A stretch of DNA of 64,000 nucleotides from an uncultured Gemmatimonadales bacterium (GTDB lineage: Bacteria > Gemmatimonadota > Gemmatimonadetes > Longimicrobiales > RSA9): contig CAVUKA010000005.1 in the NCBI GenBank assembly GCA_963741945.1, positions 522,557 to 586,556 on the forward strand. Reading direction: 5' to 3'. Below are positions 12,558 through 63,208 of this stretch, piece by piece. Both the position numbers and the translations under genes were made by a program. The notes below the pieces were generated by a model, which had not been told where the DNA came from, did no database searches, and saw only the letters and a program-made list of their open reading frames with translations. Numbering within the stretch: position 1 is the first letter of the stretch; each line of letters starts with the position of its first letter.

Positions 12558-15188
<2,631 letters not shown>

Positions 15189-15199
15189 GTCCGAAGCGC

Positions 15200-43827: not shown

Positions 43828-44141
43828 TCCGGCGGCCCCGCCGCCGCTCCCCGGGCTCCGCGTCGCCACCGTGTTGTGGGCCGGACCGGGGATCGTCCCA
43901 TCCCGCTACAAAGTTGCCGGTCGCACCCTGTCGCAACGGCCCGCGCTGACCCCGTAACACGAGGTCCGCCAGAGACTTGGGGGGCGGCCCCCTCCGGGGC
44001 ACAGGCATTGCCCTTCTGCCGGGTCAGCATTGAACTCCCATACCGCTCCGCCGATGCTGGCGGGCTCCGGTGCGTTCACAGACGCTCGCCGGGCGGCCCG
44101 GACGGCCTCGCAATGAAGCGCAGGAAGGGCTGACGGGAACG

Positions 44142-45299: not shown

Positions 45300-45300
45300 C

Positions 45301-48503: not shown

Positions 48504-48525
48504 GGACGTGAGGGAAAGGGCGACG

Positions 48526-51208
48526 ATGATGACCGGCAGGATCCACCTCCGCGTGGCCCGGCGCACCGTCTGGCTGACGGCCACGGTCCTCGTCCTCGGC
48601 TCCATGATGCTGGTGAACGCCGGTGCGGGCGCCCAGTACGTCTGCCCGCGCGCCGCCGACCCGGAAGTCCAGGCTGGCTGGGCCGCGTACCGGCAGGGCG
48701 ACATGGCCGCCGCGCGCGACCACTTCGACGAAGCCGTGGGCCGCTGCCCCCGTCACGTGGGCGGACGGACCGGGCTGGCCTACGTCGAGCTACGGAGCGG
48801 CAACACCGTCGCCGCCAGCCGCCTGTTCGACGCCGTCCTGTCCGGGCACCCGAACGCCGTCGACGCGCTGGTGGGGCGGGGCATCGTGGCCTGGCGCCAG
48901 GACGAGCTCGCGCTGGTGGGCGACCGTGTTCCAGCGCGTGCGACGACTCGATCCGGGCAACGCCGAAGCCGACCGCTACCTCGGGCTCCTGCAGGCCCGC
49001 GAGCCCGCCCCCCGTCCCGCCCCGCCCCGCCCGCCGCTGACGCGGCCGGACACCCTCGAGCTGCCGGCCCGCGCCTTCGGCGACCACCTCGAAGTGCGCA
49101 CCGACACCGGCTGGGCCCGTCTCTACATCAAGGCCATCGACCTCGGCGCGGCGCTCCCCGGCCACTTCGCCACCCAGTTCCCGGACTCCGCCACCTACGC
49201 CCGCTGGCTGGACGGGATGGCGGCCACGGGAGCCAACGCCGTGCGCGTGTACACGCGCCACCCGCCCGCGTTCTACGAAGCGCTCGCCGACCACGACGCG
49301 CGCCACCCCGACCACCCGCTCTGGCTCATGCAGGGGGTGTGGGCGGACCTGCCGCCGGACGGCACCCGCTACGCCGATCCGGCCTGGCAGGGCGAGTTCC
49401 TCGCCGACGTCGGCCGCGCCATCGACATCATCCACGGCCGCGCCGACATCGCGCCGAAGCCCGGCATGGCCTCCGGCCACTACGCCGCCGACGTGTCGCG
49501 CTGGACGCTGGCCATCATCCTGGGGCGCGAGTGGGAGGCCACGTCGGTGATCGGCTTCGACCGGCTGCGCCCCGACTTCACCGCCTGGGCCGGCACCTAC
49601 GCCACCGCCACCGGCGCGTCGCCCATGGAAGCGTGGCTCACCATGGTCGTGGACTCCACCGTGGCCATCGAGACGCGCAGGTACAACACGCAGCGGCCGG
49701 TCTCCTACACCAACTGGCCCACCACCGACCCGCTGCGCCACCCGACGGAAGCAACCAGCCTCGAGGAAGCCGCCATCCTCCGCGGCCTGGGTGACGGCAT
49801 CGACCTCGGACAGGTGATGCTGGAAGGCGAGGACGCGGTCACCATCGACCCGGGGCACACGCGCGCCACCGGCCGCTTCCCGGCCGGGTTCTTCGCCACC
49901 TACCACGTCTACCCGTACTACCCGGACTTCATGACCCGCGAGCCGGCGTACCTGCACGCCGTCTCGCCCTGGGGCCCCTCCAACTACTTCGGCTACCTCA
50001 CCGCCCTGAAGCGCTACCACCGCGACATCCCCGTCTTCATCGGCGAGTACGGGCTGCCCCCGAGCATCGGCGTGTCCCACGTCGCCCCCTTCGGCTGGCA
50101 CCACGGCGGCCTCACCGAGGCGCGGGCCGCCGCGGGCACCGCACGCCTCACCCGCGAGATCGCCGCCGCGGGCATGGCCGGGGGCGGCGTGTTCGAGTGG
50201 ATCGACGAGTGGTTCAAGAAGACGTGGGTGACCCAGCAGTTCGAGTCGCCGCCGGAACGGGACCGCATGTGGTACAACCGCCTCGACTCCGAGGAGCACT
50301 TCGGCCTCAACGCCGTGGAGCCGGAGCCCCGCATCCGCGGCGAGACCCTCGCCGAGCGGGTGAACGGCGGCTGGCTCATGGTGCGGCCGGCATACGACGA
50401 TTCCACCCGGGGCACCCTCCGCCTCCTGGCCGACGAGGCCTACCTCCGCGTGCTCTACGTCGCGCCGCGGCGCGTCGACGAGGTCCTGCTCGGCTTCGAC
50501 GTCATCGACCCCCGCCGCGGCGACAGCCGCTGGCCCGGCAAGGTGGGCCCCCGCCTGCCCGTGGGCCTCGAGGTCGTCCTGCGCGCCCGCGGCGACACCG
50601 CCCGCATCCTGAAGGACACCCACTCGCAGCCGATCCGGATCCGCGAGCTGCCCGCCGCGCCCATCGATTCCGGACCCGACATCGCGTCGCCGCCGCCAGG
50701 GTTCTTCCGCGGCCGATTCGTCACGGTCGGCAGGCTGCGCATCCACTCCCGCCTCAACGACGACGGCGTCTACGAACCGCCTCGCCTGGTCTTCTCGCGA
50801 CGCATGTTCGCCCGCGACTCCACCGAGTTCGCCGCCCTCGGCTACGACGCCGGCCTGCTGCCGAACGGCCCCGGGCCCGACGGCCTGTGGCAGACCAATG
50901 GCACCGCCTGGGAGTTCCGCATCCCCTGGCAGCTCCTGGACGTGGGCGACCCCAGCCAGCTCCTCGTGCTCCAGGACACGCTCCAGCGCTGGCGCGGCGG
51001 CCCCCTGGAGACCGTGCCCGTGGACGCCATCCGCGTCCTGGCCGCCGCCCGCACCCGCTCCGGCGACTGGCTCCAGCTCCCGGCCTCCAACCGCCTCGAG
51101 GACGTCGCCTCCTTCTCCTGGGCCACCTGGGAAGAGCCGAAGTGGCAGGCCAGGCCCCGGCCGGTCCTCGATTCCCTGCGCGAGGCGTGGAGCGGGATAC
51201 CGGAATGA
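48526..51208 (+). pseudogene. frameshifted CDS: signal peptide + TPR + clan GH-A-like TIM-barrel glycosidase domain
   Basis: Frame 1 (48526 to about 48927) encodes a signal peptide and TPR sequence. Frame 2 (about 48926 to 51208) continues the same TPR (VFQRVRRLDPGNAEADRYLG) and a TIM-barrel-like domain (VRVYTRHPP, ILGREWE, FIGEYG, FEWIDEWFKKTW). After the junction, frame 1 becomes R/P-rich nonsense. Confidence 0.65.
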
Positions 51209-51406: not shown

Positions 51407-52375
51407 TTATCGGACCGCATTTACGGCCAGAGACTGGTCAGATATCGCTCGGGGATGATGGCTGGAAACGAAGACCGCGATGGGCACCAGCGCCAGCGGG
51501 AGATAGGGGATCAAAACGTACGGCGATGCGAATACTCCCGCCACGAGGACGCAGGCCACTTGCAGCCGTGGCGAACGATGCCGCAGCATGACACCCACCA
51601 CTACGGGAGCCAGCACTCCCAGGAACACCGGGATCCATGGAAGGCCGAGCCAATCGCCAATAGGGGTGGTGGGCGAAAGGTTGAGACCCGCCCACCCTTG
51701 CGCCACGTGCGGCAACACCTCGGTGAGCCAATGAAGCGACGCGCGAACGAACCCGCCCGGTGAAAGTGCCGCCATTCCCACGAGGACCGACCCGGCCAAG
51801 GCGGCTGCGGCGCCAGCAAACGCGCGGCGGTCCCGAGCTGCGGCAAAGGCGAGGGGAAAAACAGCATACGGCTTGACCACGGCGACGAGGGCAAGGAGTG
51901 CGCCGCGTCGTGCGCCGGAAAGAGCCACACCCCATCCCGCCAGCGCCCAAAGCACCGGGTCTACATTGGCGAAACCCAGGCCCACGGCTGCACCGGGGAA
52001 CGCCCCCGCGATGAATACCCAGGCGGCCCATCCTGATGGCGTGGCCCGCCCATGGGCGATCCTGGCCAGTGCCGCGGCAAAGGCCCAGAACGAGGCGAAC
52101 AGCAGCACGGACCAGCACCGGCTGAAAGTCACGAAGGACATCCGCGGAGCCAGGGACAGCGCAGGGGCGAGCACCGGGGGATAGAGGTACCAGAAGTCCC
52201 CGTGTTCGACGACCTTGCCCTTCGACATGGGCGGATACAGCGGCTCGCCGTCCTGGATCCTCCGTTGCGCCAGCCAGTTGCTGGGGACGTCCCGATCGCT
52301 CCAGGACGGATTCATCATTTCCCGCGGCAGCATGACAACGGCGGTTGCCGCGGTGAATGCCCACGCTACCATCAT
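51407..52375 (-). CDS. DUF2029/GT87-like polytopic membrane protein (copy A)
   Basis: Start set at ATG 52375 (uncertain). LYPP...FWYLYPPVLAPAL motif and 8 or more TM helices. Paralog of 57128-58273 (FSRCWSVLLFASFWAFAAALARIAHGR vs FQRAWFLVVAFSFWAFAALLARIARGR; VKPYAV in both). Confidence 0.65.
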   Translation of the reverse strand: MMVAWAFTAATAVVMLPREMMNPSWSDRDVPSNWLAQRRIQDGEPLYPPMSKGKVVEHGDFWYLYPPVLAPALSLAPRMSFVTFSRCWSVLLFASFWAFAAALARIAHGRATPSGWAAWVFIAGAFPGAAVGLGFANVDPVLWALAGWGVALSGARRGALLALVAVVKPYAVFPLAFAAARDRRAFAGAAAALAGSVLVGMAALSPGGFVRASLHWLTEVLPHVAQGWAGLNLSPTTPIGDWLGLPWIPVFLGVLAPVVVGVMLRHRSPRLQVACVLVAGVFASPYVLIPYLPLALVPIAVFVSSHHPRAISDQSLAVNAVR

Positions 52376-52479
52376 GGCCCGGCGGGCGAGCCATTCCGTG
52401 TTCAGCTTCAACTTGACTCCAGTGACCAAACGAGAAGGCTCCCGCTCGCGGATCGCGGGTGCGGACGCTCCATGGCGGA

Positions 52480-54027
52480 TCAGGTGCCGGCGCGGACCAG
52501 CAGCACAGCCACCGAATCCTCGTGGGCCACCCGCCACTGTGGTGTTTCCTTGAGGGCTTCCACCAGCGGCGCATCCGGCCGGACCAGCACCAGGGAAAAG
52601 CCGTAGTGATCCATCAATTCTTTCCAGCCCCGTTCCGCGCTGACGATCGTGCCGTACTCCTTCACCAGATCGTCGCCGAAGAAGTCTGCCATGCTGTCGA
52701 CGAACAGGCGCTGCCCCGGCCAGGCATACAGCACGTACCCACCCCAGCTGTACTGGCTGAACAGGCGTCCGCCCAGACGCGCCTCCCTGGCATATCGCAC
52801 GGCCGCGGCCGGAAAGACATCCGGTGAGGGCTGGTCGGGTACGATCGTGATCCGCTGCGTCCTTCCGTCCGTCAGCAGCAGCGCCACCAGGAGCGTCCCG
52901 ACGCCGAGTCCCAGCCGCCAGCCCCGCGTGTCGGAGCGTGCGAACTCCTCGCGCATCCGCCCCACCAGGCCGGCGTGCAGCTGCCGCACCAAGGGCGTGA
53001 GCGCGCGCGCCATCACGGGGAGCGCGAAGAGGGCGAACATCGCCGTGTTGCGACGGGCGGAGAGCGCCCCCATGAACGCCGCGGCGGTGACCAGGAGCGG
53101 CCGCCACCCGGGCCACTCCTTCTGCGCCGCCAGGCCGAGCACCAGGAGGCCGCAAACGGCCATGAACGGCAGTCCCTCGGGGGAGAAGGCGATGAGCGCC
53201 TGGAACTCGTTCACCTGCGCCACGGTCTGGCTCCCCATCCACGTCATGGCGTGCACGTGCAGCGCCCAGCCGAACGGGTTGAGGAGCGACGCCGCGAGCG
53301 CGACGACGAAAGGGGCGGCAGACGTGCGCAGCGCCGACAGCCGGGGACGTCCGGCCCTGATCTCGTCGATCCATTCCCCCGCTCCCCATGCTCCGACCAT
53401 CACGGCCCCGTAAAGGAATCCGGGATGCAGGTTGGCCCAGAACGCGAACAGGAGCGAAGTCCAAAGCAGCCGGCGGCGCGACAGCAGGGCGTGAGGCAGG
53501 GCGGCGAGCGCGAGATAGGAGAACAGGTGGGGCCGCGCGATCCAGTGCGACTGGTTCAGCACGACCGCCGCGGCGCCCGTGACCAGCGCCAGCCAGGGGT
53601 CGCCGCCATCCCGCCGCACGTATGCAACCACCAGCGCCACGGCCCCGCCGATGAGCAGCGCGGCCAGCGCCACCACGCCGGCGAATCCAGCCGCCGCATG
53701 GGCCCCGGCGTATGCCACCTGGCTGAGCCATTCATAGGCGAGGAACGGCTCTCCGGCCCGGGAGAAGGAGAACGGGTCCGCGAACCTCGGCCCATGCCCG
53801 AGGATGTAGCGGCCGATGAGGATGTGCCGGAGGAGGTCGCCGTCACCATTGACCAGCCGCCCGTGGGCCAGGAATGCCGCTGAAGCCGAGGTCAGGGCGA
53901 ACGCCATACCTACCACGGATGCCTGCTGGGGCTCACGGGCCGGCACAGCGGCACCGGCCGGCGGTTGCGAAACGGGTGAAGCCTCCTGGCCCGCCCGGGC
54001 GGTTTCCGTCGCGCCGGGGCCGCTCAC
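52480..54027 (-). CDS. large polytopic membrane protein with C-terminal soluble domain, GT-C-like architecture (copy B)
   Basis: GTG 54027 in a GTGA overlap with the GT2 stop. VNGDGDLLRHILIGRYILGHGPRFADPFSF..FLAYEWLSQ, WANLHPGFLYG and YSWGGYVLYAWPGQRLFVDSMADFFG. Close paralog of 55608-57131. Confidence 0.75.
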   Translation of the reverse strand: MSGPGATETARAGQEASPVSQPPAGAAVPAREPQQASVVGMAFALTSASAAFLAHGRLVNGDGDLLRHILIGRYILGHGPRFADPFSFSRAGEPFLAYEWLSQVAYAGAHAAAGFAGVVALAALLIGGAVALVVAYVRRDGGDPWLALVTGAAAVVLNQSHWIARPHLFSYLALAALPHALLSRRRLLWTSLLFAFWANLHPGFLYGAVMVGAWGAGEWIDEIRAGRPRLSALRTSAAPFVVALAASLLNPFGWALHVHAMTWMGSQTVAQVNEFQALIAFSPEGLPFMAVCGLLVLGLAAQKEWPGWRPLLVTAAAFMGALSARRNTAMFALFALPVMARALTPLVRQLHAGLVGRMREEFARSDTRGWRLGLGVGTLLVALLLTDGRTQRITIVPDQPSPDVFPAAAVRYAREARLGGRLFSQYSWGGYVLYAWPGQRLFVDSMADFFGDDLVKEYGTIVSAERGWKELMDHYGFSLVLVRPDAPLVEALKETPQWRVAHEDSVAVLLVRAGT

Positions 54028-54848
54028 GGCTCCCTTCCCGCCGTCATCGGCTCCGTTCCTTTCGATGCGGGCCGGCCGGTTGGCCCGGCCACCAGGCGGC
54101 GCCCGGGCCGCTGCACCCACAGGCGAAGAAGAAAAAGGAAAGCGCGGGCGCCCGCCAGCATGGAGACCTTCGACTCGCCCACGTCGCGCCAGGCGGGAAG
54201 CGGCACCTCTACGATCCTGTCGATCCCGCTGTCCCCCCACCCCTCCTGGAGGCGGCGCAGCAGCTCGATGTCGAACGCCCAGCGCGATTTGAACGGCCGC
54301 TGGAGTGCGTGCTCCAGGGCCGATGACTTCCGCAGGAGCTTGGCACCGCACTGTGTGTCGTATACGGGCACGCCGAGCGCCAGCGACGCCAGTGTGCCAT
54401 AGGCACGCCCGGCCAGGTGGCGCAGGCCGGACCGCTGGATCTCGCGGCCCAGCATTCGAACGCGCGCGCCCATGACCACGTCCACCCCACGGCGCTCATC
54501 CAGGAGTTGATCGAACGCTTCGATCATGTCCAGCGGCGTGGCGAGATCAGCGTCCCAGTAGCCCACGCGCGACGCGCCCGCGTCGAGCGCCGTCCTGAGG
54601 CCGGCCCGAACCGCCTCTGCCTTCCCCACGTTCTGCTCCAGCGCCAGCACGCGGCAGCCGCCGGCACGGAGGCGCCCGATCCCGACGGCAAGGGCGTCCA
54701 GCGACCGGCGCGTGCCATCGGTGCTTCCGTCGTCCACGAAGATGAACGTGGGCGCGCGGGAGCCAGCGGCCGCCGCCAGGAATGCGGACGCATCCAGGCG
54801 AAGCGCCTCGTTGTAGCACGGCACGACCACCCAAGCATCACTCGCCAT
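54024..54848 (-). CDS. family-2 glycosyltransferase, polyprenyl/dolichyl-phosphate hexose synthase-like
   Basis: VVVPCYNE, FVDDGSTDGT, YWDADL (DxD), YDTQCGAKLL and RWAFDIELL resemble Alg5/GtrB-type lipid-phosphate sugar synthases. Confidence 0.8.
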   Translation of the reverse strand: MASDAWVVVPCYNEALRLDASAFLAAAAGSRAPTFIFVDDGSTDGTRRSLDALAVGIGRLRAGGCRVLALEQNVGKAEAVRAGLRTALDAGASRVGYWDADLATPLDMIEAFDQLLDERRGVDVVMGARVRMLGREIQRSGLRHLAGRAYGTLASLALGVPVYDTQCGAKLLRKSSALEHALQRPFKSRWAFDIELLRRLQEGWGDSGIDRIVEVPLPAWRDVGESKVSMLAGARAFLFLLRLWVQRPGRRLVAGPTGRPASKGTEPMTAGREP

Positions 54849-55611
54849 CGGCCTGGCTCCGCCTCAGAATCGCCAACAGACTCAGCCCATGCCCCGGGAG
54901 ATCGCGGCGTCCCCGCTTCAGCGCATCCACGAGCCCTGGAACCTCGCCCGTGAACACCCGTTCCAGGGCGCGGTTCACCGGCGCCCATGGCAGCCCCATA
55001 TCGCTTCCTTCGCGCCCCGTGCCGCTCCCCCGCCACGCCCCGAGACGCCGGACCATCCGCGCCAGCGGGTACAGCCGGCGATTGAATGGCGCCAGCAGGC
55101 GGACTTCTGCCGGGACGCCCGACCAGGCGTCCCAGAGCATCTCGCGGGTGTATCGCCGGTAGTGTCCGTACACCTCGTCGTGGGGGCTCCAGAGCCAGGG
55201 CCCGAACGGCACGGTCATCAGCAGGTGCGCCTCCGGGCGCATGCTGCCGATCAACCGCTCCAGGAAAGCGTGGTCATGCTCGACGTGCTCCAGGACATCG
55301 CAGAGGAGGACCAGGTCGGCCCGGCCGATCATTTCCCTGCCGGCCTCCGGAGCGGCGCCTGTTTCGAAGCTGACGCCCGGATGGGCCCGTCGCGCCAGCT
55401 GGATTGCCGTGGGCGAGCTGTCGATCCCGTGGCGGTCGTGCCTCTCGGGGAACGCACCGATATCCGCGCCCGTGCCGCACCCGACATCCACCACCACACC
55501 CCGTTCGGGCAACAGCCGCGTCCCGAGTTCCAGGATGGCCCTGCGCCGCCCCCGGAACCACCAGTGGCGCGCCTCGAGCGCGTGGTGCGTGCTGAACAGC
55601 TGTTCCTTCAT
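54838..55611 (-). CDS. class I SAM-dependent methyltransferase
   Basis: ATG 55611 in an ATGA overlap with the upstream stop. HWWFRGRR, VVDVGCGTG and LLCDVLEHVE motifs. 11-nt overlap with the GT2 start. Confidence 0.85.
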   Translation of the reverse strand: MKEQLFSTHHALEARHWWFRGRRRAILELGTRLLPERGVVVDVGCGTGADIGAFPERHDRHGIDSSPTAIQLARRAHPGVSFETGAAPEAGREMIGRADLVLLCDVLEHVEHDHAFLERLIGSMRPEAHLLMTVPFGPWLWSPHDEVYGHYRRYTREMLWDAWSGVPAEVRLLAPFNRRLYPLARMVRRLGAWRGSGTGREGSDMGLPWAPVNRALERVFTGEVPGLVDALKRGRRDLPGHGLSLLAILRRSQADGE

Positions 55612-57131
55612 CCGCCCTCCCCGTTCTTCGCCAGCAGGACCGCCACGCCGTCCTCGTGCACAACGCGCCAGCCGTCGGCCCCGCGGAGCGCCTCCACGAT
55701 GGGCGTTCCCGGCGGGAAAAGCACGACGGAGATCCGGTTCCGGGCCAGCAGATTGCGCCAGCCGGGCCGGGCGTCCCTCAGCACGACGTAGTCGCCGATG
55801 AGCTCCGGGCCGAAGAAGTCGGCCATGCTGTCCACGAACACGCGCTGCCCCGGCCACGCGTAGAGGACGTAGCCGCCCCATGTGTACTCGCTGATCAGGC
55901 GACCGTCCAGTTGTTGACTCATGGCCACCCGGACCGCCGCCTCGGGAAACACGTGGGGCGAGAACCGGTCCGGCAGCAGCCCGGGTCCCCCGACCCGGCC
56001 CACCACGAGAAGCAGTGCCAGACCGGCCGCGGCCATCGAACCATGGCGCGATCCTGGTCGATCCGATCGGGCGAACTCCGCGCGCATCCGGCCCAGCAGC
56101 CAGTGCGGGAGCGCCGCCATGGCGGGCGCCAGCGCGCGGGCCGCGAGGGGGAGCGCGAACAACGGAAGCAGCGTCGTGTACCGGCGTCCCATGAACGATA
56201 CGGCCACCGCAATGGTGAACGGGAGCACCGCCGGCCACGGCCTGGCAGGCCGGGCGAGGGCGAGTCCGGCGGCGGCCGTTCCGGCAACAGCAAGGAACAC
56301 CAGTCCGTTGATAGACAACAGGGGGAGCGGCAGGAACTCCGAGACCCCCATGGCCGAGCCGCCTCCGCCGAGCGCAAGCGCGTGGACGTGGAGCGCCGCG
56401 CCGAAGGGGTTCAGCAGCGTGGCGGCGGAAGCGACCAGCACGGGCACGCCCCACCGCACGACGGCGCGCCCGGTCCCATCCCCGGAGCGGACGTCCTCCA
56501 CGGCCATGCCCGACGACCATGCGCCGAGCATCACCAGTCCATAGAGAAACCCCGGGTGGAGGTTGGCCCACAGCGCGAACAACACCCCGAGCCACAGCGT
56601 CCGACGCGGGGACTCGATTGCGTACAGCAGCGCCGCGAGACCAAGGAAGCTGAACAGGTGGGGGCGCGCCAGCCAGTGCGGGTACGTCAGCACCACGGCA
56701 GCCGTCCCGACCATGAACGCGAGCCACGGGTCCCCCGCAGCCCGGACCCAGCGCACCACCAGCGCGAAGGATGTGGCCAGGAGCAGCGACGAGAGGACGA
56801 CCACGCCAGCGAGCCCCAGCCAGCCATGGACGGCCGCAAGCAACGCCTGACTCAGCCATTCGTACGCCAGAAACGGGTCTCCCCCTCGCGTGAATGAAAA
56901 CGGATCCGCGAAGCGCGGCCCGTGCGCCAGGATATACCGGCCGGTCACGAGGTGACGGGCCAGGTCACCGTCCCCATTCACCAGCATTCCGCCGAAGCCC
57001 AGCGGGATCACGAGCGCCCAGAGAGCGAACGTGAGATCGACCACCGACGCGCGGCCGCGCTCGCCATGGGCCGCGCCCAGCTCGGCACCGCCACGCGTGG
57101 ACACGGCGGCCTCCACCGGTCCGTGCATCAC
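55608..57131 (-). CDS. large polytopic membrane protein, GT-C-like architecture (copy B')
   Basis: GTG 57131 (GTGA overlap) or ATG 57128. VNGDGDLARHLVTGRYILAHGPRFADPFSF..FLAYEWLSQ, WANLHPGFLYG and YTWGGYVLYAWPGQRVFVDSMADFFG. Confidence 0.8.
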   Translation of the reverse strand: MMHGPVEAAVSTRGGAELGAAHGERGRASVVDLTFALWALVIPLGFGGMLVNGDGDLARHLVTGRYILAHGPRFADPFSFTRGGDPFLAYEWLSQALLAAVHGWLGLAGVVVLSSLLLATSFALVVRWVRAAGDPWLAFMVGTAAVVLTYPHWLARPHLFSFLGLAALLYAIESPRRTLWLGVLFALWANLHPGFLYGLVMLGAWSSGMAVEDVRSGDGTGRAVVRWGVPVLVASAATLLNPFGAALHVHALALGGGGSAMGVSEFLPLPLLSINGLVFLAVAGTAAAGLALARPARPWPAVLPFTIAVAVSFMGRRYTTLLPLFALPLAARALAPAMAALPHWLLGRMRAEFARSDRPGSRHGSMAAAGLALLLVVGRVGGPGLLPDRFSPHVFPEAAVRVAMSQQLDGRLISEYTWGGYVLYAWPGQRVFVDSMADFFGPELIGDYVVLRDARPGWRNLLARNRISVVLFPPGTPIVEALRGADGWRVVHEDGVAVLLAKNGEGG

Positions 57132-58273
57132 GGTCCTGCAGAGGCGCTTGCAGTGGCACCGACCGCAGCCTCAGCCGCGGCCGCGCTCCCCCCGCCCGTC
57201 GCCCGTCCCTTCTTCCGCCCGACCAGCACGGCCGCGAACACCAGCCCGATGGCCAGATATCCGTTCCAGCAGAGCGGCGAGAACAGCAGCGACGCCAGCA
57301 ATACCGCGGTCAGGTGCAGCCGGGTGTCCCACCGCCGCGTGAGCCACCAGGCGCCGAATGGCGCCGCCACGGAGGCGGCAGTCAACCACACCCTCCACCC
57401 CGGCGACAGCGGCCCTGACTCGTAGTGCGAGACGCCCGTCCAGCGGGCCACCCGCAGCACCAGGAACGATAGCGACCAGTTCGTGGACAGGAACGCGCCC
57501 TGGCCGAGCGCCGGCGGGATCGCGGTGAACCACTGCTGCGACACGCGGAAAAGCCGCGCCGGACCCAGTGCGGCGACACTCACCAGCACCACGCCCACCG
57601 CGGCCCAGACGGCTCCTCGCACCACCCGCCACCGCTCCCGCCACACCGCCGCGATCACCGCCCATACGGCGTACGGTTTCACCGCCGTCGTGAGGACCAG
57701 CCCCGCCCCGCGGAACCGCGGATACGCGATGGCCCCGGCGAAGAACACCCACAGAAGGGGATCGATGTTGAACAGCAGGAAGAACAGCAGGGCTCCCGGC
57801 ATCAGCACAACCAGGCCATGCCAAAAGAAGAATCCTCCGACGCTCCACCGCCCCCGTGCAATCCGCGCCAGGAGCGCCGCGAACGCCCAGAAGGAGAACG
57901 CCACCACGAGGAACCACGCTCGCTGGAAGGTGACCAGCTCCGTGCGGGGCAGCAGTGCCACCACGGACGCCAGGGGAGGCAGGTACGGGCTGTTGTCCAT
58001 CGGGTATCCGGTCGAGCCGGACCCCCCCATCACATCCGGTCCGAACCCCGGCATCCGCCGGTACAGCTCCTCCGCTCCTGCACGTACCCGCTCCGACTGG
58101 TACCATACCTGTGGCGAGTCCACATTGTCCGGACCGGGGTGGCGGATGCTGTCCGCCAGCCACCACGCTTGAAAGGGGATGATCAGGGCGCCGACCAACA
58201 GAAAAGGAAGGCGCACATAAAATGAAGGCGTTCTGGACCTGCTTCCGTTGACGGTGCCTGCACGGATGATCAT
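57128..58273 (-). CDS. DUF2029/GT87-like polytopic membrane protein (copy A')
   Basis: 381 aa, multi-TM. SPYLPPLASVVALLP motif. Paralog of 51407-52375. Confidence 0.75.
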   Translation of the reverse strand: MIIRAGTVNGSRSRTPSFYVRLPFLLVGALIIPFQAWWLADSIRHPGPDNVDSPQVWYQSERVRAGAEELYRRMPGFGPDVMGGSGSTGYPMDNSPYLPPLASVVALLPRTELVTFQRAWFLVVAFSFWAFAALLARIARGRWSVGGFFFWHGLVVLMPGALLFFLLFNIDPLLWVFFAGAIAYPRFRGAGLVLTTAVKPYAVWAVIAAVWRERWRVVRGAVWAAVGVVLVSVAALGPARLFRVSQQWFTAIPPALGQGAFLSTNWSLSFLVLRVARWTGVSHYESGPLSPGWRVWLTAASVAAPFGAWWLTRRWDTRLHLTAVLLASLLFSPLCWNGYLAIGLVFAAVLVGRKKGRATGGGSAAAAEAAVGATASASAGP

Positions 58274-58279
58274 TGCCGG

Positions 58280-59491
58280 TCAGGAGGTCTTCCGTGGGGC
58301 GCCGCTGATCGACCGGGAACGCCAGCCGCCACCAAGGTCAAGTCGGGGCCGACCCGTACCGGGGATGGCGTCCGGCCGCCCCCACCCGGTTCGCTCCCGC
58401 GTAGCTCGGCCGGCAAGTGCCCACCCGAGGAGCCCGACCAGGATGCCCGCCAGGGCGTCCGCAGCATAGTGCTCACCAAGAAAGACCACGGCCACGCTCA
58501 TCAAGGCGACATAGCCCATTCCTAGCCACTTCAGAGAACGGTGCAGATTGGTCAGGGCAAATGCCGTCACCGTTGCGAGCACGAGGTGGACGGAAGGCAT
58601 TGCCGCCACGTCATTCGAGGAAGCGCGATAACCTGCCTCCATGATCTGGGGCACGCTCGGGTACATGACGTCCCAAAGTATCCGGCGCACGGGCGCTATT
58701 GCGCCGGCGTTCGCGGCCATCCACGGCGGCACGGTTGGGAACGCGGTGTGCCACACCAGGGCGATCCCGAAACCCGACAACAGGGCCAAAACCACGCGGG
58801 TCGCCGACCTGTTCAGAGCAAGTGACGCGGCAAGCACAAGAGGGAAGGCAAAATGAAACGAAAGATACGTGATGCTCATCAGCACGTCCAACAACCTGGC
58901 CTGGAAGTGCTCCTGAAGCAGCACCGTCGGGACTGTCCCGAGCCCCAGCACCCGATCCACGAAGATCGGATACTGCGTGCGCCACGGCGCCACCGCGTCC
59001 GCCAGCCCGCGCAGTGAAGCGAAGGCCGCATATCCGAGAGCCCACAGCCCGAACAGCTTCACGCGGATCGAACGCGTCCACAGGAGCCATAGGCCCAAGG
59101 GGACGAGCAGAATGGCGTTCCCCGGACTCAGCACGAAGAACAGGGGGCTGATGCCGATGACGAGAAGGACGAAGAGCCCGATGGCGGCCCCGAGCGCGCC
59201 GAGGACGCTTCGCAGGGCCGCCAGCAATCCCGCCCCGGTCACACTACGCCCGCGGCCACCGGGGACGAATCGGGCGACCACGCTCCCCCGGGAAGGAGGC
59301 TCTGAACCGGGCCTTTCAGATCGGTATCGGCCGCCGGCAGCGTTCTCAAGCGGAGTTGTTGGGTGCAAAGCCATGCCGGCCGCGTTTGCTGCCCCCCTCC
59401 GTTGCCTGGCGCCAGGCGCGCACGGATCCTCTCGATTTGCTGACATAAGATCACTGATGGCCGGCGTCCCACCGCGAATACTCGGGCACAA
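58280..59491 (-). CDS. PAP2-superfamily membrane protein (AUR1/PAP2_C-like phosphotransferase/phosphatase)
   Basis: Multi-TM. AMPSVH ... GEHYAADALAG matches the C2/C3 PAP2 motifs (SxH, HxxxD). Start uncertain (59491, 59446 or 59374). Confidence 0.65.
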   Translation of the reverse strand: MCPSIRGGTPAISDLMSANREDPCAPGARQRRGAANAAGMALHPTTPLENAAGGRYRSERPGSEPPSRGSVVARFVPGGRGRSVTGAGLLAALRSVLGALGAAIGLFVLLVIGISPLFFVLSPGNAILLVPLGLWLLWTRSIRVKLFGLWALGYAAFASLRGLADAVAPWRTQYPIFVDRVLGLGTVPTVLLQEHFQARLLDVLMSITYLSFHFAFPLVLAASLALNRSATRVVLALLSGFGIALVWHTAFPTVPPWMAANAGAIAPVRRILWDVMYPSVPQIMEAGYRASSNDVAAMPSVHLVLATVTAFALTNLHRSLKWLGMGYVALMSVAVVFLGEHYAADALAGILVGLLGWALAGRATRERTGWGRPDAIPGTGRPRLDLGGGWRSRSISGAPRKTS

Positions 59492-59670
59492 TTCGAAGCC
59501 GAGTCACAACAGAGAAGCGGAAACCAGGTCACGGTGGAGCCCCGCCGCGCTCTCCAACAAGCTTACATTGACAGGCCCCGGGAACCAGCCAAACCACGCG
59601 CACCCGAAGCCGTACAGGAAGGCCAGTATGGCCAGAGACCCGGCAAACGCATATCTCTCAGGGCGGCTCT

Positions 59671-61266
59671 TCATCTACTCTGTCCTGCGCGTCCTGTTAT
59701 ATCCGGGGGCGGATCTGGCGTACGGACGCGTGTGGCCTGCTGGCACAGTTGCCATACGGTTATTTTCGGCTGACGCTGACCTGCGTCCGTAACACGCACC
59801 GGTTCATCACACGCTCGCCCGGGCGCTAGAGATCTACGTAGCCAGAATGACCTCCCGGCACGTTCCGCACAGAAGATGTACTCGGCTTCGAGAGCGCGCT
59901 TGAAGCGGTTGGCGAAGTCACGACGCTGCAGCCTCAGCGCCACTGAGTCGACGATCACGACGAGAGCCGGCCGCCCAGTCTGGAGCCGTGAAACTACTGT
60001 ATCCTGAACGGACGGCACGGACACAAGCTGCATCACGTACAATTGCTCGGGGACGGCGGGTGCCCGCTCGGCAACGAAGTAATCCTCGGGTTCAGAGGCG
60101 GCGATGTAGATCGACTCGGATGGCAGCGTGAGTTGCTGGATCTTGCTGGCGACCGTGTCGAGCGCTGCGGCCCTGCCTTCGTGCCACCAGTAGTCCTGCC
60201 ACTGGCGATCGCCGCGCCACCACTTTGCTTCCAGCGGGAGCAGGCCGCAGGCGAGCACGACGACAATGGCTACCCCAGGGCGAATGCGCCTGAGATCCGC
60301 CAGGGCCATGATGCCGAAGGCGCCCAGGATTGCCAGGGGCGGCACGAATGTGATGAAGTAATGAGGGTACCACTTCGAACCAATGAGGCCCCCAGCCAAG
60401 GAGGACAGGATCCACAGTGACGCAAACCACCGGATTTCGGCGGAAGACGTGCGTTCGTCCGCAGGAAGGGTCGCGCGGGGGAGAACGCCGAGAGCCAGCG
60501 GAAGCAGTAACGCGGGAGCAGCCCGGAGGGCTCCGTAGATGAAACGCCCTATTTGCAGTGTGGGGGGGGCGGTCATGCCCGAGTCGACCAGAAGGCGCTG
60601 ACTTACCAGCGAGTACCAGTAGCCCTGCCAGTCCGCCGCGGCCCCCGCGAGCATGGAAAAGGCTGGCCACACAGCAAACGTCCACAAAGAGGTCAGCGCT
60701 TCTCGCGCTTCGCGCCGCCTCGCGGCCCATGCGAAGAGGAGGACGAACTGGCCGGCCCCCACGGGCTTGATGAATGCCGCCAGGCCTATCCAGAAACCGG
60801 CTCGCTTCCACTGGCCGGCCCAGATGGCGGCCGCCGAGAGCACGAGCGGCAGGTTGACCCATGTTTCGGCGTTCGCCGAGAAGCCTTCCACGCTCGCCGT
60901 GGTGGAAAGCACGGCGAACAACGCGGCTGCGAGCCAACCCCCGGCGCACCCCAGTACCGGCCGGGTGGTCCAACCGAGAAGGACTGATGTGGCCGCTACC
61001 CACAGCGCTGCACCCACCCGGAACCCCGTAACGGAATCGCCGAACAGGCGCATGGCAGCCGTGAAGAGCCAGAAAATGCCTTGCGGGCGATCGAACGGAA
61101 AGGTGGAATAGAGCCCGCCGTGCCGGACGACCAACGCGTAAGCCGCAGCGTCCGGGGAGGGAGGGGCGTCAAGAAACAACATCCGCAGCGCAACGGCGAG
61201 AGCGAACACGCCACCCGCCAACCAGAAGTCCCCGGCGCTCCAACGCCGTTCCCGGAGCACCGTCAC
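59671..61266 (-). CDS. ArnT/PMT-like GT-C glycosyltransferase (family 39/83-like)
   Basis: GTG 61266 in a GTGA overlap with the GtrA stop. About 11 TM helices and a C-terminal soluble domain. Visibly lower GC than its surroundings. Confidence 0.65.
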   Translation of the reverse strand: MTVLRERRWSAGDFWLAGGVFALAVALRMLFLDAPPSPDAAAYALVVRHGGLYSTFPFDRPQGIFWLFTAAMRLFGDSVTGFRVGAALWVAATSVLLGWTTRPVLGCAGGWLAAALFAVLSTTASVEGFSANAETWVNLPLVLSAAAIWAGQWKRAGFWIGLAAFIKPVGAGQFVLLFAWAARRREAREALTSLWTFAVWPAFSMLAGAAADWQGYWYSLVSQRLLVDSGMTAPPTLQIGRFIYGALRAAPALLLPLALGVLPRATLPADERTSSAEIRWFASLWILSSLAGGLIGSKWYPHYFITFVPPLAILGAFGIMALADLRRIRPGVAIVVVLACGLLPLEAKWWRGDRQWQDYWWHEGRAAALDTVASKIQQLTLPSESIYIAASEPEDYFVAERAPAVPEQLYVMQLVSVPSVQDTVVSRLQTGRPALVVIVDSVALRLQRRDFANRFKRALEAEYIFCAERAGRSFWLRRSLAPGRACDEPVRVTDAGQRQPKITVWQLCQQATRVRTPDPPPDITGRAGQSR

Positions 61267-61721
61267 CCTTCCCCTGCAACAAGCGGCCGTGCCCACGTGA
61301 AGGCGTTGTTAAGAACAAAGTTGAGGACCAGCATGGCTGCGATCGCAGTGGCATTGGCCAACATCAGCCAACCCATGCCCCACCACGCGGTGAGTGTCGT
61401 GACAGTTGCGACAGTTCCGGTGAGCGTGAGCAAGGATATGGACTGAAACCGAAGGAGCCGCTGAGCCCAGCCGTTCCGGGTAGTGCGCCCTCTGAACGTG
61501 AACGTATCGTTGCCGACGAAATTGAACAGGATCGCAGTCTCCGTGGCGGTGGCGGAACTCAGAATGACCGGCCATCCGACAGCGTGCACGCAGACCCAGA
61601 GAACGGCCATGTTGACAGTTGTCCCAGTCCCGCCCACCAGAGCATAGCGAACGAAAGTCCGAAGATCCTCAAAGCTGTGAGGGAGCCGGTATTTGGTCGG
61701 GGTATTACACGCGACAGTCAT
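61263..61721 (-). CDS. GtrA family protein (lipid-linked sugar translocation-associated)
   Basis: 152 aa, 4 TM helices. FVRYALVGGTGTTVNMAVLW and NFVLNNAFTW are typical of GtrA. ATGA overlap with the upstream stop. Confidence 0.85.
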   Translation of the reverse strand: MTVACNTPTKYRLPHSFEDLRTFVRYALVGGTGTTVNMAVLWVCVHAVGWPVILSSATATETAILFNFVGNDTFTFRGRTTRNGWAQRLLRFQSISLLTLTGTVATVTTLTAWWGMGWLMLANATAIAAMLVLNFVLNNAFTWARPLVAGEG

Positions 61722-63208
61722 GACGCTGGAGCAGCAAGGTCAACCGGGTGAATATTCTCCTGTTCGCGCCAGCCATCACAAGCCGGTTCCCCCAGCCGCA
61801 TCTCCTCGTGGTATTCCATGTCGCTGTTCACTGCCCAAACGTCATGGTGCGCGCCGAAGATGTTTTCGACCGCGAGCATGGCCGTGAGCATGGAGTGGTC
61901 CTGGTTGTTGTACTTGTGCATCCCGTTTCGGCCGGCCACCTGCAGGTTCGCTACCTCGTCGAGGAAAGCGCGCACCTCTCCGAGGTGGTGTTGATACGCC
62001 CCATCATAGACGGGGTACGCTTTCGTCATACGAACGACGTGCCCGCGGACGACCGTGGCGTCCCCCGACAGCCCGAGCTGCCGCAGCTCGCGCGTGGCCT
62101 GCTCGATCAAAGCGCCGTCATCGCTGCTCCAGAGACCATCGCCCTCGAAGCAGAAGTACTCCATTCCGAGGCAGGTGCGCCCCGCCTCCGGGACCATGGC
62201 GCGGCTCCAGTTGTTGAAGTTCTGGATCCGGCCCACCTGGACATCGGGGGAGTGCACGTACACCCAGTTGTCCGGGAACAGCGGCTCGTCATCCAGAATC
62301 AGGGCAACCACCAGGAAGTCGCGGTAGCGGAGGCTCCGGCCCGACTCCCGCGCGGTCGCCGGCGCGCTGTCGCCGAACGCGCGCACCAGCGCCCGCAATG
62401 GCATGGTGGAGATCACGTGGTCCGCCTCGAGCGTGACCCCACCGTCCGGGCCCTGGGCCTCCACGCCGGTCACGCTCCCGTTCTTGCGCAGGAAACCCAC
62501 GGCACGGTGACCCATGAGGATCCGCCCGCCGAACTCCTCGACGCGCGCCGCCGCCTTCTCCCACATCTGGCCGGGCCCGAGGCGCGGGTACTGGAACTCC
62601 TCGATCAGGCTCTTGATGTCGTCGGAGCGGCGCTGGATCGGGAGCGCCCGCAGGATGGCCTTCCCGAGCGACAGGTTCTGGATCCGCTGCGCGGCCCACT
62701 CCGCCCGGATCTCCGTGCACGGCATCCCCCAGACCTTCTCGGTGTACGTCTTGAAGAACGTCCGGTACAGCGCGCGTCCGAAACGGTTCGTCACCCACTG
62801 CTGGAAAGTGTCCTCATCCTTTGACGGGAAGAGCCTGGCCCATGCATAGCTCAGGACCATGCCGGCGGCGCGGAAGAGTCCCAGACCCCGGAGCGCGTTG
62901 CCGGCCTTGAGCGGGTAATCGAAGAAGCGGCCCCGATAGTAGATTCGCGACAGTCGGGGTACGGAGATCATCTCCTCGCCCAGCCACTCGTGCCAGAGCG
63001 CCTGCACTTCCGGGATCTTCGTGAAGAAGCGATGCCCGCCGATGTCAAAGCGATAGCCGTCGCGCACGACGGTACGCGAGATGCCGCCCACCTGGTCGTC
63101 CGCCTCCAGCACCGTCACGGCCACCCCACGCTTCGCCAGCATGTAGGCGGCCGTGAGTCCGGCGGGGCCGGCGCCGATGATGACGACTTGCTGGCTGCGT
63201 GGATCCAT
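61718..63208 (-). CDS. FAD/NAD(P)-binding oxidoreductase (amine-oxidase / UDP-galactopyranose-mutase-like)
   Basis: VVIIGAGPAGLTAAYML dinucleotide fold, then VLEA.DQVGGISRT and FDIGGHRFF. Confidence 0.8.
   Translation of the reverse strand: MDPRSQQVVIIGAGPAGLTAAYMLAKRGVAVTVLEADDQVGGISRTVVRDGYRFDIGGHRFFTKIPEVQALWHEWLGEEMISVPRLSRIYYRGRFFDYPLKAGNALRGLGLFRAAGMVLSYAWARLFPSKDEDTFQQWVTNRFGRALYRTFFKTYTEKVWGMPCTEIRAEWAAQRIQNLSLGKAILRALPIQRRSDDIKSLIEEFQYPRLGPGQMWEKAAARVEEFGGRILMGHRAVGFLRKNGSVTGVEAQGPDGGVTLEADHVISTMPLRALVRAFGDSAPATARESGRSLRYRDFLVVALILDDEPLFPDNWVYVHSPDVQVGRIQNFNNWSRAMVPEAGRTCLGMEYFCFEGDGLWSSDDGALIEQATRELRQLGLSGDATVVRGHVVRMTKAYPVYDGAYQHHLGEVRAFLDEVANLQVAGRNGMHKYNNQDHSMLTAMLAVENIFGAHHDVWAVNSDMEYHEEMRLGEPACDGWREQENIHPVDLAAPAS

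Follow-up and report, generated by a model that had tools for sequence, protein, structure and literature searches.

Tad/Flp pili rank with the most widely distributed adhesion organelles of bacteria and are thought to be derived from an archaeal-type pilus machinery. DPMS, ArnC, and GtrB are all polyisoprenyl-phosphate glycosyltransferases. The mycobacterial arabinogalactan/LAM cluster contains Glf, the GtrA-like protein Rv3789, the PAP2 protein Rv3807c, and GT-C enzymes of the Emb/Aft type. Multi-component transmembrane glycosylation is already known in general and is represented by GtrA/GtrB/GtrC (Shigella, Salmonella phages), CsbB/GtcA/YfhO, ArnC/ArnT, and the GT136 pentofuranose system (PMC11127046, PMC8035078). 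In Pseudomonas aeruginosa group IV, the GT-C enzyme TfpW is encoded beside the pilin gene and glycosylates type IVa pilins with a furanose from a polyprenyl-phosphate-linked donor (bioRxiv 10.1101/2020.04.19.049825). The GT87 mannosyltransferases PimE and Rv2181 of the Corynebacterineae use polyprenyl-phosphate-mannose, and PimE and its relatives, the characterised GT87 enzymes, act on PIM/LM (PMC12041525). For Tad pili, Flp1 of A. actinomycetemcomitans has been reported to be glycosylated, according to the statement in PMC6182317 that cites Inoue 2000, and the structure of the Caulobacter Tad pilus has no glycan density (PMC10710030). No enzyme for the glycosylation of Flp is described in the searchable literature.

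In this report, we describe an island of 10 co-oriented minus-strand genes at positions 51407-63208 of the window, by which we mean the whole 64-kb stretch of DNA that was analysed. We place at about one in two the probability that this island is an operon-like unit for polyprenyl-phosphate-sugar-dependent glycosylation at the periplasmic side of the inner membrane, which would descend from a gene set associated with Tad/Flp and would probably have a protein as its substrate. Established here are the genes of the island, the folds and families of their products, and their associations in other genomes. All ten functional assignments of the original prediction were borne out by Pfam/NCBIfam, profile, and Foldseek comparisons, more tentatively for the ArnT-like fold; its title counted 11 genes, but its own list also holds 10. 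As it had supposed, no described pathway with this gene combination was found in the searchable literature. The island has in common with the multi-component systems a cytoplasmic GT2 for the formation of a polyprenyl-phosphate sugar, a small GtrA-type protein, and predicted GT-C transfer outside the cytoplasm. Unlike those systems, it encodes five GT-C enzymes of three types rather than one, contains a methyltransferase, a PAP2_3 protein, and a mutase in addition, and includes a B-type GT-C that falls outside the described families; its acceptor is likely a protein rather than O-antigen or teichoic acid. What is new is the extent of the B family and its adjacency to Tad/Flp genes.

The open reading frames were found at their predicted coordinates and are backed by codon-position GC (GC3 of 0.70-0.86). 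For seven genes the public gene calls give identical products, namely the flavoenzyme (496 aa), GtrA (152 aa), A′ (381 aa), B′ (506 aa), the methyltransferase (257 aa), GT2 (274 aa), and B (515 aa). The start codon is correctly placed at each of the five predicted 4-nt start/stop overlaps: 61721 ATG over 61718 (flavoenzyme/GtrA), 61266 GTG over 61263 (GtrA/ArnT-like GT-C), 57131 GTG over 57128 (A′/B′), 55611 ATG over 55608 (B′/methyltransferase), and 54027 GTG over 54024 (GT2/B). The methyltransferase and GT2 genes overlap by 11 nt, a 6-nt gap separates PAP2 from A′, and the B/A junction is 50-105 nt, depending on whether A starts at 52537 (GTG), 52429 (TTG), or 52375 (ATG). Within A, positions 51500-52100 give a weak coding signal; the GT87 Pfam match nonetheless covers most of the protein. 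A survey of start codons leaves a single sizeable intergenic gap inside the island, which separates the ArnT-like GT-C gene from PAP2 and measures at least 179 nt (59492..59670). An internal promoter may possibly lie in this gap, where a consensus scan found none. Co-transcription of the island is predicted because the genes overlap. No sigma-70-like promoter was found by simple scans, and terminator-like sites do not exceed their frequency in shuffled sequence. Plus-strand flanks on both sides set the island apart as a discrete unit: an open reading frame that diverges from 63421 and, facing its 3′ end, a convergent locus at 44070-51208 that encodes HEAT, processive GT2, and TPR proteins and a protein of 861 aa. 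The latter is the synthase-type EPS locus next to which the island had been placed. The adjacency stands, but the EPS locus is convergent and therefore lies outside the transcription unit of the island, and a linkage between the two is not demonstrable.

The GT2 (54024..54848; 274 aa; PF00535) is without a transmembrane domain of its own. The closest solved relatives of its profile are DPMS (5mlz, 5e-38), ArnC (4e-34), and GtrB (2e-26), in agreement with the polyprenyl-phosphate type originally proposed, and by this homology the enzyme is a predicted polyprenyl-phosphate-monosaccharide synthase. The small membrane protein at 61263..61721 (152 aa) matches PF04138 (GtrA_DPMS_TM) with 84.2 bits against a cutoff of 26.1, as expected for its assignment to the GtrA family, and may be either a flippase or the membrane partner of the GT2. 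A class I SAM-dependent methyltransferase is encoded at 54838..55611 (257 aa; Methyltransf_23/12/25/11); methyltransferase cluster 39 adjoins B in Gemmatimonadales. The flavoenzyme at 61718..63208 (496 aa) is a homolog of the eukaryote-type UDP-galactopyranose mutase. It matches NF005548 (PRK07208.1-4) with 703 bits as well as Pfam Amino_oxidase, and its alignment with the T. cruzi enzyme (4dsg; E 5.7e-21, residues 6-454) is full-length, so that the Glf-like assignment holds over the whole protein. The bacterial Glf model TIGR00031 was rejected (35.1 bits against a cutoff of 303.75, with the Rossmann part only). The aligned motifs are GGH, EW..QR, GR, KAYP, and GR..KY..NQDHS; the GGH (histidine) loop and the equivalents of R182, R327, Y419, R447, Y453, and N457, which include the Arg and Tyr residues for substrate binding, are kept, with residue roles assigned after AfUGM and TcUGM. 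Its homologs occur in gene clusters for glycans, and a GT2 domain is fused to some of them. From its sequence, the protein is a probable NDP-sugar pyranose/furanose mutase, and the same role would be probable for the very abundant PRK07208-type flavoproteins annotated as hypothetical.

B′ (55608..57131; 506/507 aa) and its paralog B (52480..54027; 515 aa, 51% identity) have no match in Pfam or NCBIfam. The AF2 model of B′ (pLDDT 91.6, pTM 0.90) shows a GT-C(A) fold and, at its C-terminus, a globular domain. All 22 Foldseek matches at E ≤ 1e-3 are GT-C enzymes; STT3, AglB, and DPY19 lead, AftA, ArnT, and PglB are also among the top matches, and the best 14 are oligosaccharyltransferases (E 1.6e-7 to 4e-6). 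The C-terminal domain weakly matches the globular domain of AglB-S2. With STT3, AglB, and PglB, the best structural matches (TM 0.52-0.59), B′ has in common a DxD that follows TM1 and a small C-terminal domain of the alpha/beta type, although that of B/B′ is far shorter. Among 107 family members the residues D54/D56, R156, N190, H192, E265, R317, and W418 are invariant or nearly so, and B contains them as well; D54 and D56 of the acidic D-x-D directly after TM1, in the first external loop, are found in 106 and 102 of the 107 sequences, respectively. The W-x-D/G-Y motif right after the last transmembrane helix is common to the oligosaccharyltransferases and the B family, but B and B′ carry WGGY instead of WWDYG; WGDY or WADY is found in 31 of the 107 relatives. 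None of 63 family members matched the STT3 Pfam model, even at E ≤ 1, and the family profile had no match among PDB sequences. The WGGY motif and the lack of an STT3 sequence match run counter to the reading as a protein glycosylation system. The DPMS-like GT2 encoded with B/B′ suggests monosaccharide donors, in contrast to the en bloc transfer by oligosaccharyltransferases. The family comprises about 34,600 clusters at 50% identity and is unannotated.

The proteins A (51407..52429; 322-376 aa) and A′ (57128..58273; 381 aa) are 33% identical to one another and match the GT87 model PF09594 with 50.3 and 30.8 bits, respectively, both above the Pfam gathering threshold of 25; neither matched the solved PimE at the sequence level. 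A and the PimE-like A′ differ from PimE-type enzymes in phylum and gene context, and there is no sign of a phosphatidylinositol acceptor. The near-orphan protein at 59671..61266 (531 aa) is below threshold for both PMT_2 (19.6 bits against 26.1) and GT87. Only six homologs were found, four of which match PMT_2 (PF13231). Its AF2 model, from a 7-sequence alignment and with a pLDDT of only 70.7, has ArnT (5f15) as the best Foldseek match (E 6.5e-8, TM 0.57). The Foldseek and HMM classification that had been proposed thus gave a GT-C fold for B′ and GT87 membership for A and A′. The two GT87 proteins, together with the GT-C fold of B/B′ and the putative one of the ArnT-like protein, therefore make five GT-C enzymes of three types, where up to five had been predicted. 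The remaining membrane protein (58280..59491; ≤403 aa) belongs to PAP2_3 (PF14378, 83 bits against 27) and resembles AUR1 and sphingomyelin synthase. Its candidate starts are 59491, 59446, and 59374; its H-H-D motifs read PSVH and HYAAD, and KX6RP was not seen.

The genomic neighbors of B were examined in a synteny census of 84 related loci, which had been suggested with the original prediction, and the recurrent neighbors were found to be Tad/Flp genes. Tad genes are beside B in 56 of the 84 loci and in 42 of the 52 that are at least 15 kb long. In 33 of the 84 loci, a Flp-type prepilin reading frame is no more than 300 nt away from B, and in 40 it is no more than 1 kb away, with a median distance of 150 nt; its identity is confirmed by the Flp1_like Pfam annotation in locus L085. 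This adjacency is found in Acidobacteriota, Gemmatimonadota, Chloroflexota, Bacteroidota, and others, and three Tad-adjacent loci (L004, L085, and L087) contain close relatives of the B and B′ of the window (54-60% identity). The order in Gemmatimonadales is Flp followed by B, PAP2_3, methyltransferase, a PMT_2-type GT-C, and GT2, such that methyltransferase, GT2, and PAP2_3 proteins of the same types as those of the island accompany the Flp-adjacent B genes; in L006, L009, L011, and L057, PAP2_3 immediately follows B beside Flp. Serine, threonine, and asparagine make up 40% of the Flp C-termini, and 21 of 40 end with serine. None of the Tad-linked loci examined contains GtrA or the mutase, and the GT87 partner of B is limited to close relatives. 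Neither a tad gene nor a Flp-like reading frame was found in the 64-kb window, and the link of the island to a pilus is solely one of homology and synteny in other genomes. The B family, large and without a Pfam or NCBIfam model, with an oligosaccharyltransferase-like fold and Flp-adjacent genes, is therefore a concrete and testable candidate for the Flp-glycosylating enzyme. It differs from TfpW, which acts on type IVa pilins with a donor made via DprE1/E2-type genes, in its GT-C family and in its association with Flp (Tad, type IVc). The donor route predicted for the island would be GT2 plus a UGM-like mutase.

How the pathway runs, which sugar it uses, what each GT-C does, and where the sugar goes are inferred as follows. 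In the cytoplasm, the UGM-like flavoenzyme would probably convert an NDP-pyranose to an NDP-furanose, and the DPMS/ArnC/GtrB-type GT2 would load a sugar on polyprenyl phosphate. The sugar or the product would be methylated by the SAM-dependent methyltransferase, which is always paired with this type of GT2, and the lipid-linked sugar would be presented or flipped with the help of GtrA. Sugar transfer in the periplasm would then fall to five GT-C enzymes, namely the oligosaccharyltransferase-like pair B/B′, the GT87 pair A/A′, and the ArnT-like enzyme. Here B may attach the initial sugar, which the GT87 proteins and the ArnT-like enzyme may extend. The AUR1/SMS-like PAP2_3 protein would add a phospho-head-group or recycle the lipid carrier. 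The acceptor, for which the original prediction made no choice, is most likely a protein, either a Flp/Tad pilin encoded elsewhere in the genome or another surface protein, because B genes normally adjoin Flp pilin genes and resemble protein-modifying GT-Cs.

A conserved core operon of methyltransferase, GT2, B, and GT87 is seen in loci L088/L089 and L002, and the methyltransferase and GT2 of L088/L089 score 363 and 321 bits against those of the window. The island shows the expansion of such a system to a five-GT-C pathway around this core and offers a defined gene set for heterologous reconstitution. In this reading, A′-B′ arose by duplication of the GT-C pair, and the genes that run from the mutase through PAP2 form an accessory module. 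Some close relatives (L088 and L002) adjoin polysaccharide genes, and the island itself adjoins the EPS locus, which runs counter to a pilus reading, as do the missing glycan density in the Caulobacter Tad pilus and the lack of GtrA and the mutase in the Tad-linked loci. The GT2, GtrA, and GT-Cs could instead decorate an O-antigen, capsule, or EPS polymer already exported to the periplasm, with the GT-Cs adding different branches. We regard this classical three-component side-chain modification as a tentative possibility. The concept is well established (PMC11127046, PMC8035078), and its three defining parts, GT2, GtrA, and a GT-C fold, are all present. The core operon of L088/L089 is divergent from a Wzx/Wzy_C/WecG/Bac_transf cluster, dTDP-sugar genes adjoin L002, and dTDP-sugar and Wzx genes are near L002 and L090; mutase homologs also lie inside polysaccharide clusters, and the island abuts a synthase-type EPS locus. 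However, over the 84 loci B is flanked predominantly by Flp pilin and Tad genes rather than polysaccharide genes, its nearest structural relatives are protein-modifying enzymes, and five GT-Cs far exceed the number in known side-chain systems; the EPS locus of the window, moreover, is a separate transcription unit.

The protein glycosylation reading can be carried further, to a conjecture that we consider unlikely as a whole. The B family would be an unrecognised and highly diverged descendant of AglB/STT3, a dedicated glycosyltransferase of Flp (Tad) pilins that was possibly inherited with the archaeal-type pilus machinery. The island would then be a relocated, duplicated, and elaborated version, in which the B-GT87 pair occurs twice and is joined by a mutase that forms furanose and by methylation. 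With it, Gemmatimonadota would build a methylated glycan of several sugars on their pilins or on other proteins of the cell surface.

It is doubtful that the island assembles a lipid-anchored glycan outside the cytoplasm, such as a PIM/LM/LAM-like lipoglycan or a glycosyl-phospholipid, in which the AUR1-like PAP2_3 protein would make the phospho-lipid anchor and the GT87 and other GT-Cs would elongate it from polyprenyl-phosphate sugars. Two GT87 proteins are present, and the characterised GT87 enzymes have glycolipids and lipoglycans as acceptors and are not known to act on proteins, which also speaks against a protein acceptor here. The PAP2_3 protein has AUR1/SMS-type motifs, but its match to the bacterial phosphoinositol dihydroceramide synthase model (NF052609) is weak, with 21.8 bits against an equivalog cutoff of 480, and that identity was rejected. 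Glf-like, GtrA, PAP2, and several GT-C genes co-occur in the mycobacterial arabinogalactan/LAM cluster; the island is without DprE1/E2, UbiA, and GlfT, and the individual proteins are only distantly related. Among its ten proteins there is also no UbiA-type DPPR synthase and no PimA/B-type or inositol gene. The conserved partner of B is Flp/Tad, whereas GT87 accompanies only its close relatives, and no such lipoglycan is known in Gemmatimonadota. The actinobacterial arabinogalactan/LAM/PIM logic originally invoked for the island has only the GT87 family in common with it; DprE1/E2, UbiA-type genes, and a PI-anchored starter are missing from the island, and the analogy is weak.

Least probable of all is a simple juxtaposition of two or three modules, each with a target of its own (mutase-GtrA-ArnT-like GT-C, PAP2-A′-B′, and methyltransferase-GT2-B-A), as the gap between the ArnT-like and PAP2 genes, the lower G+C (0.63-0.64 versus ~0.70) and GC3 over GtrA, the ArnT-like GT-C, and PAP2, the absence of GtrA, the ArnT-like GT-C, and the mutase from most related loci, and the solitary methyltransferase-GT2-B-GT87 operon of L088 might suggest, since a single polyprenyl-phosphate sugar synthase and a single GtrA serve five GT-Cs and the modules must therefore share their donor supply. 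The ten genes are also co-oriented with five overlaps, and in L002 a mutase homolog (80% identity) again adjoins B-GT87-methyltransferase-GT2-B.

The ten genes of the island most probably specify a periplasmic pathway that depends on lipid-linked sugars, a reading to which we assign a probability of about 0.85. That logic was already proposed in the original prediction, and it stands together with the functional assignments of all of the island genes; the accompanying analogy to actinobacterial arabinogalactan/LAM/PIM assembly is weak. The genes are consecutive and co-oriented on the minus strand between 51407 and 63208, and they number ten, not the eleven first announced in a title whose own list also contained ten. 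Seven of the ten products are identical to public gene predictions. Each of the five predicted 4-nt start/stop overlaps (61718, 61263, 57128, 55608, and 54024) has a correctly positioned start codon. The methyltransferase and GT2 genes overlap by 11 nt, the gene for the PAP2_3 protein is separated from that for A′ by 6 nt, and the sole real internal gap, of at least 179 nt, is found at 59492–59670. The start codon of gene A is uncertain (52537, 52429, or 52375), and the GC3 coding signal within this gene is weak between 51500 and 52100 and ambiguous between two frames. The island yielded no promoter consensus, and terminator-like sites occur there at background frequency, so that co-transcription is inferred from the gene packing. 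Rfam families and tRNAs were searched for, and none was found.

The window has a G+C content of ∼70%, and the relatives of its proteins are found in the Gemmatimonadota, mostly in the Longimicrobiales. A divergent ORF starts at 63421, and the 3′ end of the island faces a convergent plus-strand locus (44070–51208) that encodes a HEAT-repeat protein, a processive GT2 (516 aa), a TPR protein, and a protein of 861 aa that Pfam does not match. This locus resembles a synthase-type exopolysaccharide locus, and upstream of it is the gene for a 794-aa DUF5916 protein (41443–43827).

The enzymes on the donor side were assigned with Pfam and NCBIfam models, which confirmed the GT2, identified the methyltransferase as a class I SAM methyltransferase, and matched the GtrA and PAP2_3 proteins with 84 and 83 bits, respectively. 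Using a profile built from the GT2 and its orthologs, the best solved relatives were found to be dolichol-phosphate-mannose synthase (5e-38), ArnC (4e-34), and GtrB (2e-26). All of these are polyisoprenyl-phosphate glycosyltransferases, which at the sequence level supports the predicted polyprenyl-phosphate type. Single-sequence searches of the PDB with the GT2, the ArnT-like protein, and A returned nothing; only the GT2 profile gave matches. The GT2 lacks a transmembrane domain of its own, and one may be supplied by a separate protein of the GtrA/DPMS-TM type.

For the flavoenzyme, the match to NF005548 (PRK07208.1-4, "hypothetical protein") reaches 703 bits. Residues 6–454 align with the UDP-galactopyranose mutases (UGM) from Trypanosoma and Aspergillus with an E value of 5.7e-21, and the GGH histidine loop, the EW..(Q/E)R flap arginine, and the F-x-(F/Y)-P..G.G flap are all retained, as are the elements Y..GR, K(G/A)YP, and GR.G..(R/K)Y..NQDHS. 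We take the roles of these conserved residues to be those of their counterparts in AfUGM and TcUGM. From the alignment and the retained elements, the flavoenzyme is a probable NDP-sugar pyranose/furanose mutase. It lies outside bacterial Glf, whose model TIGR00031 does not recognize it. Its homologs are very abundant, 65–70% identical across phyla, and located in Wzx/glycosyltransferase clusters. Many homologs of the PRK07208 type (P0282, P0304, P0324, and P0319) are ∼650 aa in length with an N-terminal extension of ∼165 aa. The extension of P0324 matches Glycos_transf_2, and the resulting GT2–mutase fusion ties the flavoenzyme family to glycan synthesis. A reading of these longer homologs as GtrA fusions was rejected since the extension is N-terminal and, where recognizable, GT2-like. 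The PAP2_3 protein contains the motifs PSVH and HYAAD and lacks KX6RP, a combination that we take to look more like the phosphotransferases of the AUR1/sphingomyelin-synthase type than simple phosphatases.

Five GT-C enzymes had been predicted, and this count stands, with B and B′ carrying a GT-C(A) fold according to structural modeling and Foldseek. The GT87 scores of A and A′ are 50.3 and 30.8 bits, respectively, against a cutoff of 25. The 531-aa membrane protein encoded at 59671–61266 gives only subthreshold matches to PMT_2 and GT87, and its predicted structure (pLDDT 70.7) is closest to that of ArnT (E 6.5e-8, TM 0.57). This protein is a near-orphan with six homologs among 5.8 billion proteins; one of these is 97% identical and is found on a 3.7-kb contig. 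B and B′ are paralogs (51% identical) for which Pfam and NCBIfam returned no match; a Pfam search with 63 members of the family was also empty at the relaxed threshold of E ≤ 1, and the family profile found no sequence-level match in the PDB. The model of B′, built from an alignment of 63 sequences, has a pLDDT of 91.6 and a pTM of 0.90, and at E ≤ 1e-3 its Foldseek matches in the PDB are exclusively GT-C enzymes. The STT3 and AglB oligosaccharyltransferases (OST) occupy the top ranks (E 1.6e-7, TM ∼0.58), followed by DPY19, AftA, ArnT, and PglB, and the small C-terminal α/β domain weakly matches the globular domain of AglB-S2. On the modeled structure, B belongs to an undescribed family of enzymes with the GT-C(A) fold; by sequence, both B and B′ fall outside the STT3/AglB/PglB family.

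Across 107 members of the B family, the essentially invariant residues are D54 and D56 (directly after TM1), H60, E91, R156-P157-H158, W188-x-N190-x-H192, E265, R317, and a W-G-(G/D)-Y motif directly after the last TM helix. This last motif corresponds to residues 418–421 of B′ (window ∼55869–55880). The Gemmatimonadota, including B and B′ of the window, have the WGGY variant, and the OST motif WWDYG is absent from B and B′. The WGDY/WADY variant, present in 31 of the 107 relatives (the Flp-adjacent Bryobacterales), occupies the topological position of WWDYG and recalls it. The B family is large and is represented by 34,612 sequences at 50% identity with E ≤ 1e-3, and by 9,603 with E ≤ 1e-30.

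Scanning a single genome for each species recovered at least 567 relatives of B from the Gemmatimonadota, Acidobacteriota (many of them Bryobacterales), Chloroflexota, and Verrucomicrobiota, and also from the Desulfuromonadales, Pedobacter, an anammox bacterium, and the Acidimicrobiia. All ORFs from the best 80 loci of the scan and from four additional loci were clustered. Of these 84 loci, 56 have the machinery for Tad pili (RcpC, secretin, CpaE, TadA, TadB/C, prepilin peptidase, and TadE, identified by Pfam) beside B; among the 52 that are at least 15 kb long, 42 do. In 33 of the 84 loci, B has an ORF for a Flp-type prepilin (G/XXXXEY followed by a hydrophobic stretch) no more than 300 nt away, a number that rises to 40 at a limit of 1 kb; the median distance is 150 nt. 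In the Acidobacteriota the Flp gene is on the same strand and directly downstream of B (27 loci); in the Gemmatimonadales it is upstream and divergent (12 loci). The last 15 residues of Flp are 40% Ser/Thr/Asn, and Ser is the final residue in 21 of the 40 nearest Flp genes. N-X-S/T sequons were not consistently present in the Flp C-termini on inspection, and N-linkage is therefore not claimed.

The closest relatives of B and B′ from the window are 54–75% identical. At two of the related loci (L088 and L089), methyltransferase, GT2, B, and GT87 genes form a stand-alone operon, with the methyltransferase and GT2 matching those of the window with 363 and 321 bits, respectively. These four genes are the conserved core operon. 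A third locus, L002, has the order mutase and then B-GT87-methyltransferase-GT2-B; its second B-type gene (13926–15813) is split into two ORFs of 219 and 306 aa, which may reflect a frameshift, a pseudogene, or an assembly error. B-GT87 follows the Tad genes in L004 and L087, and in L085 B adjoins a two-component system, Flp, and Tad. The Gemmatimonadales order is Flp, B, PAP2_3 (1–138 nt after B), methyltransferase, a PMT_2-type GT-C, and GT2. From these arrangements, nearly all of the island gene types recur beside Flp/Tad, the exceptions being GtrA, the mutase, and GT87. Counterparts of the GtrA, ArnT-like GT-C, and mutase of the window were sought in the 84 loci with tblastn and HMMs, and the mutase of L002 was the only one found. 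The additional GT-C-like proteins of the Gemmatimonadales Tad loci (clusters 40, 45, and 54) have no detectable kinship to A, A′, or the ArnT-like protein, and the window encodes no homolog of the ∼620-aa protein that comes after B-GT87 in L004 and L087.

In the pathway that we propose, the mutase would supply an NDP-furanose and the GT2 would make a polyprenyl-phosphate sugar, with GtrA aiding its presentation or flipping. B or B′ would start the glycan by placing its first sugar on an acceptor in the periplasm, and the GT87 proteins and the ArnT-like enzyme would extend it. The tightly coupled methyltransferase would methylate the sugar or the product, and the PAP2_3 protein would catalyze phospho-head-group transfer or recycle the carrier. 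Such a scheme works like the multicomponent transmembrane glycosylation systems (PMC11127046, PMC8035078), and the island has all three of their testable defining features. The Actinoplanes gsf GtrA cluster (PMC13390465) was considered and is unlike the island in content.

The acceptor, left open in the original prediction, can now be tentatively proposed for this genome at somewhat less than even odds: a protein is the most likely candidate, either a Flp pilin whose gene lies elsewhere in the genome or a different surface protein. The 64-kb window contains no tad genes and no Flp-like ORFs, and looser scans for pilin-like ORFs were also empty. A protein is favored by the pilin adjacency of the B family, by the fact that the nearest structural relatives of B (OST and DPY19) modify proteins, and by precedent. 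Flp1 of A. actinomycetemcomitans has been reported to be glycosylated (PMC6182317), and the GT-C enzyme TfpW decorates type IVa pilins with a furanose (bioRxiv 10.1101/2020.04.19.049825). The structure of the Caulobacter Tad pilus has no glycan density (PMC10710030), and thus Flp glycosylation is not universal. It is less likely, at well under even odds, that the island decorates the side chains of a polysaccharide; EPS, Wzx/Wzy, or dTDP-sugar genes do adjoin in the window and in the related loci L088, L002, and L090, but the association of B with Flp extends across the family. Tad pili have an archaeal origin, and it is conceivable, if rather unlikely, that B derives from AglB, acts as a glycosyltransferase on Flp pilins, and was passed down along with the archaeal-type ancestor of these pili.

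The assembly of a PIM/LM-like lipoglycan, toward which the actinobacterial analogy pointed, is improbable. GT87 proteins and an AUR1-like PAP2_3 protein are consistent with it, but the island lacks genes for DprE1/E2, UbiA, or inositol lipids, no similarity to PimE was detected at the sequence level, and the island is not the mycobacterial arabinan/LAM pathway. Least probable is a mosaic of separate modules, for which the internal gap, a G+C content of 0.63–0.64 over the GtrA, GT-C, and PAP2 genes, and the patchy distribution of GtrA, the ArnT-like GT-C, and PAP2 would speak, since one GT2 and one GtrA serve five GT-C enzymes and the mutase is again beside the core in L002. The lower G+C content spans window positions 58000–62000 (∼0.70 elsewhere), and the GC3 of these three genes is 0.70–0.75 versus 0.84–0.86 for their neighbors; this segment may have been gained in a separate event.

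The gene combination of the island is undescribed, the component family B is itself unannotated, and the strong genomic link of this family to Flp pilins is previously unreported. No paper was found in the searchable literature that ties Tad/Flp loci to a GT-C enzyme or to pilin glycosylation genes.

Several features of individual B loci were also observed. In L013, three tandem Flp paralogs are encoded on the minus strand (9185–9687); one has a C-terminal Gly/Asn-rich tail of ∼70 aa, and two have N-X-T sequons near the C-terminus. Four Verrucomicrobia loci (L063, L066, L076, and L083) contain tandem arrays of four to five B-family paralogs; L076 and L083 have just two detectable Tad-type neighbor genes (RcpC- and secretin-type clusters) beside the arrays, and no such neighbor was detected for L063 or L066. 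The Tad locus beside B ends in 16 loci (L001, L008, L010, L026, L040, and 11 others) with a gene pair for a ∼300-aa protein resembling squalene-hopene cyclase/prenyltransferase and a DUF362 protein. In the Bryobacterales loci (for example, L027–L029, L032, L049, and L067), the genes for a PilZ-domain protein and a LuxR-type response regulator are located just upstream of B/Flp, which suggests c-di-GMP-linked control of this gene group.
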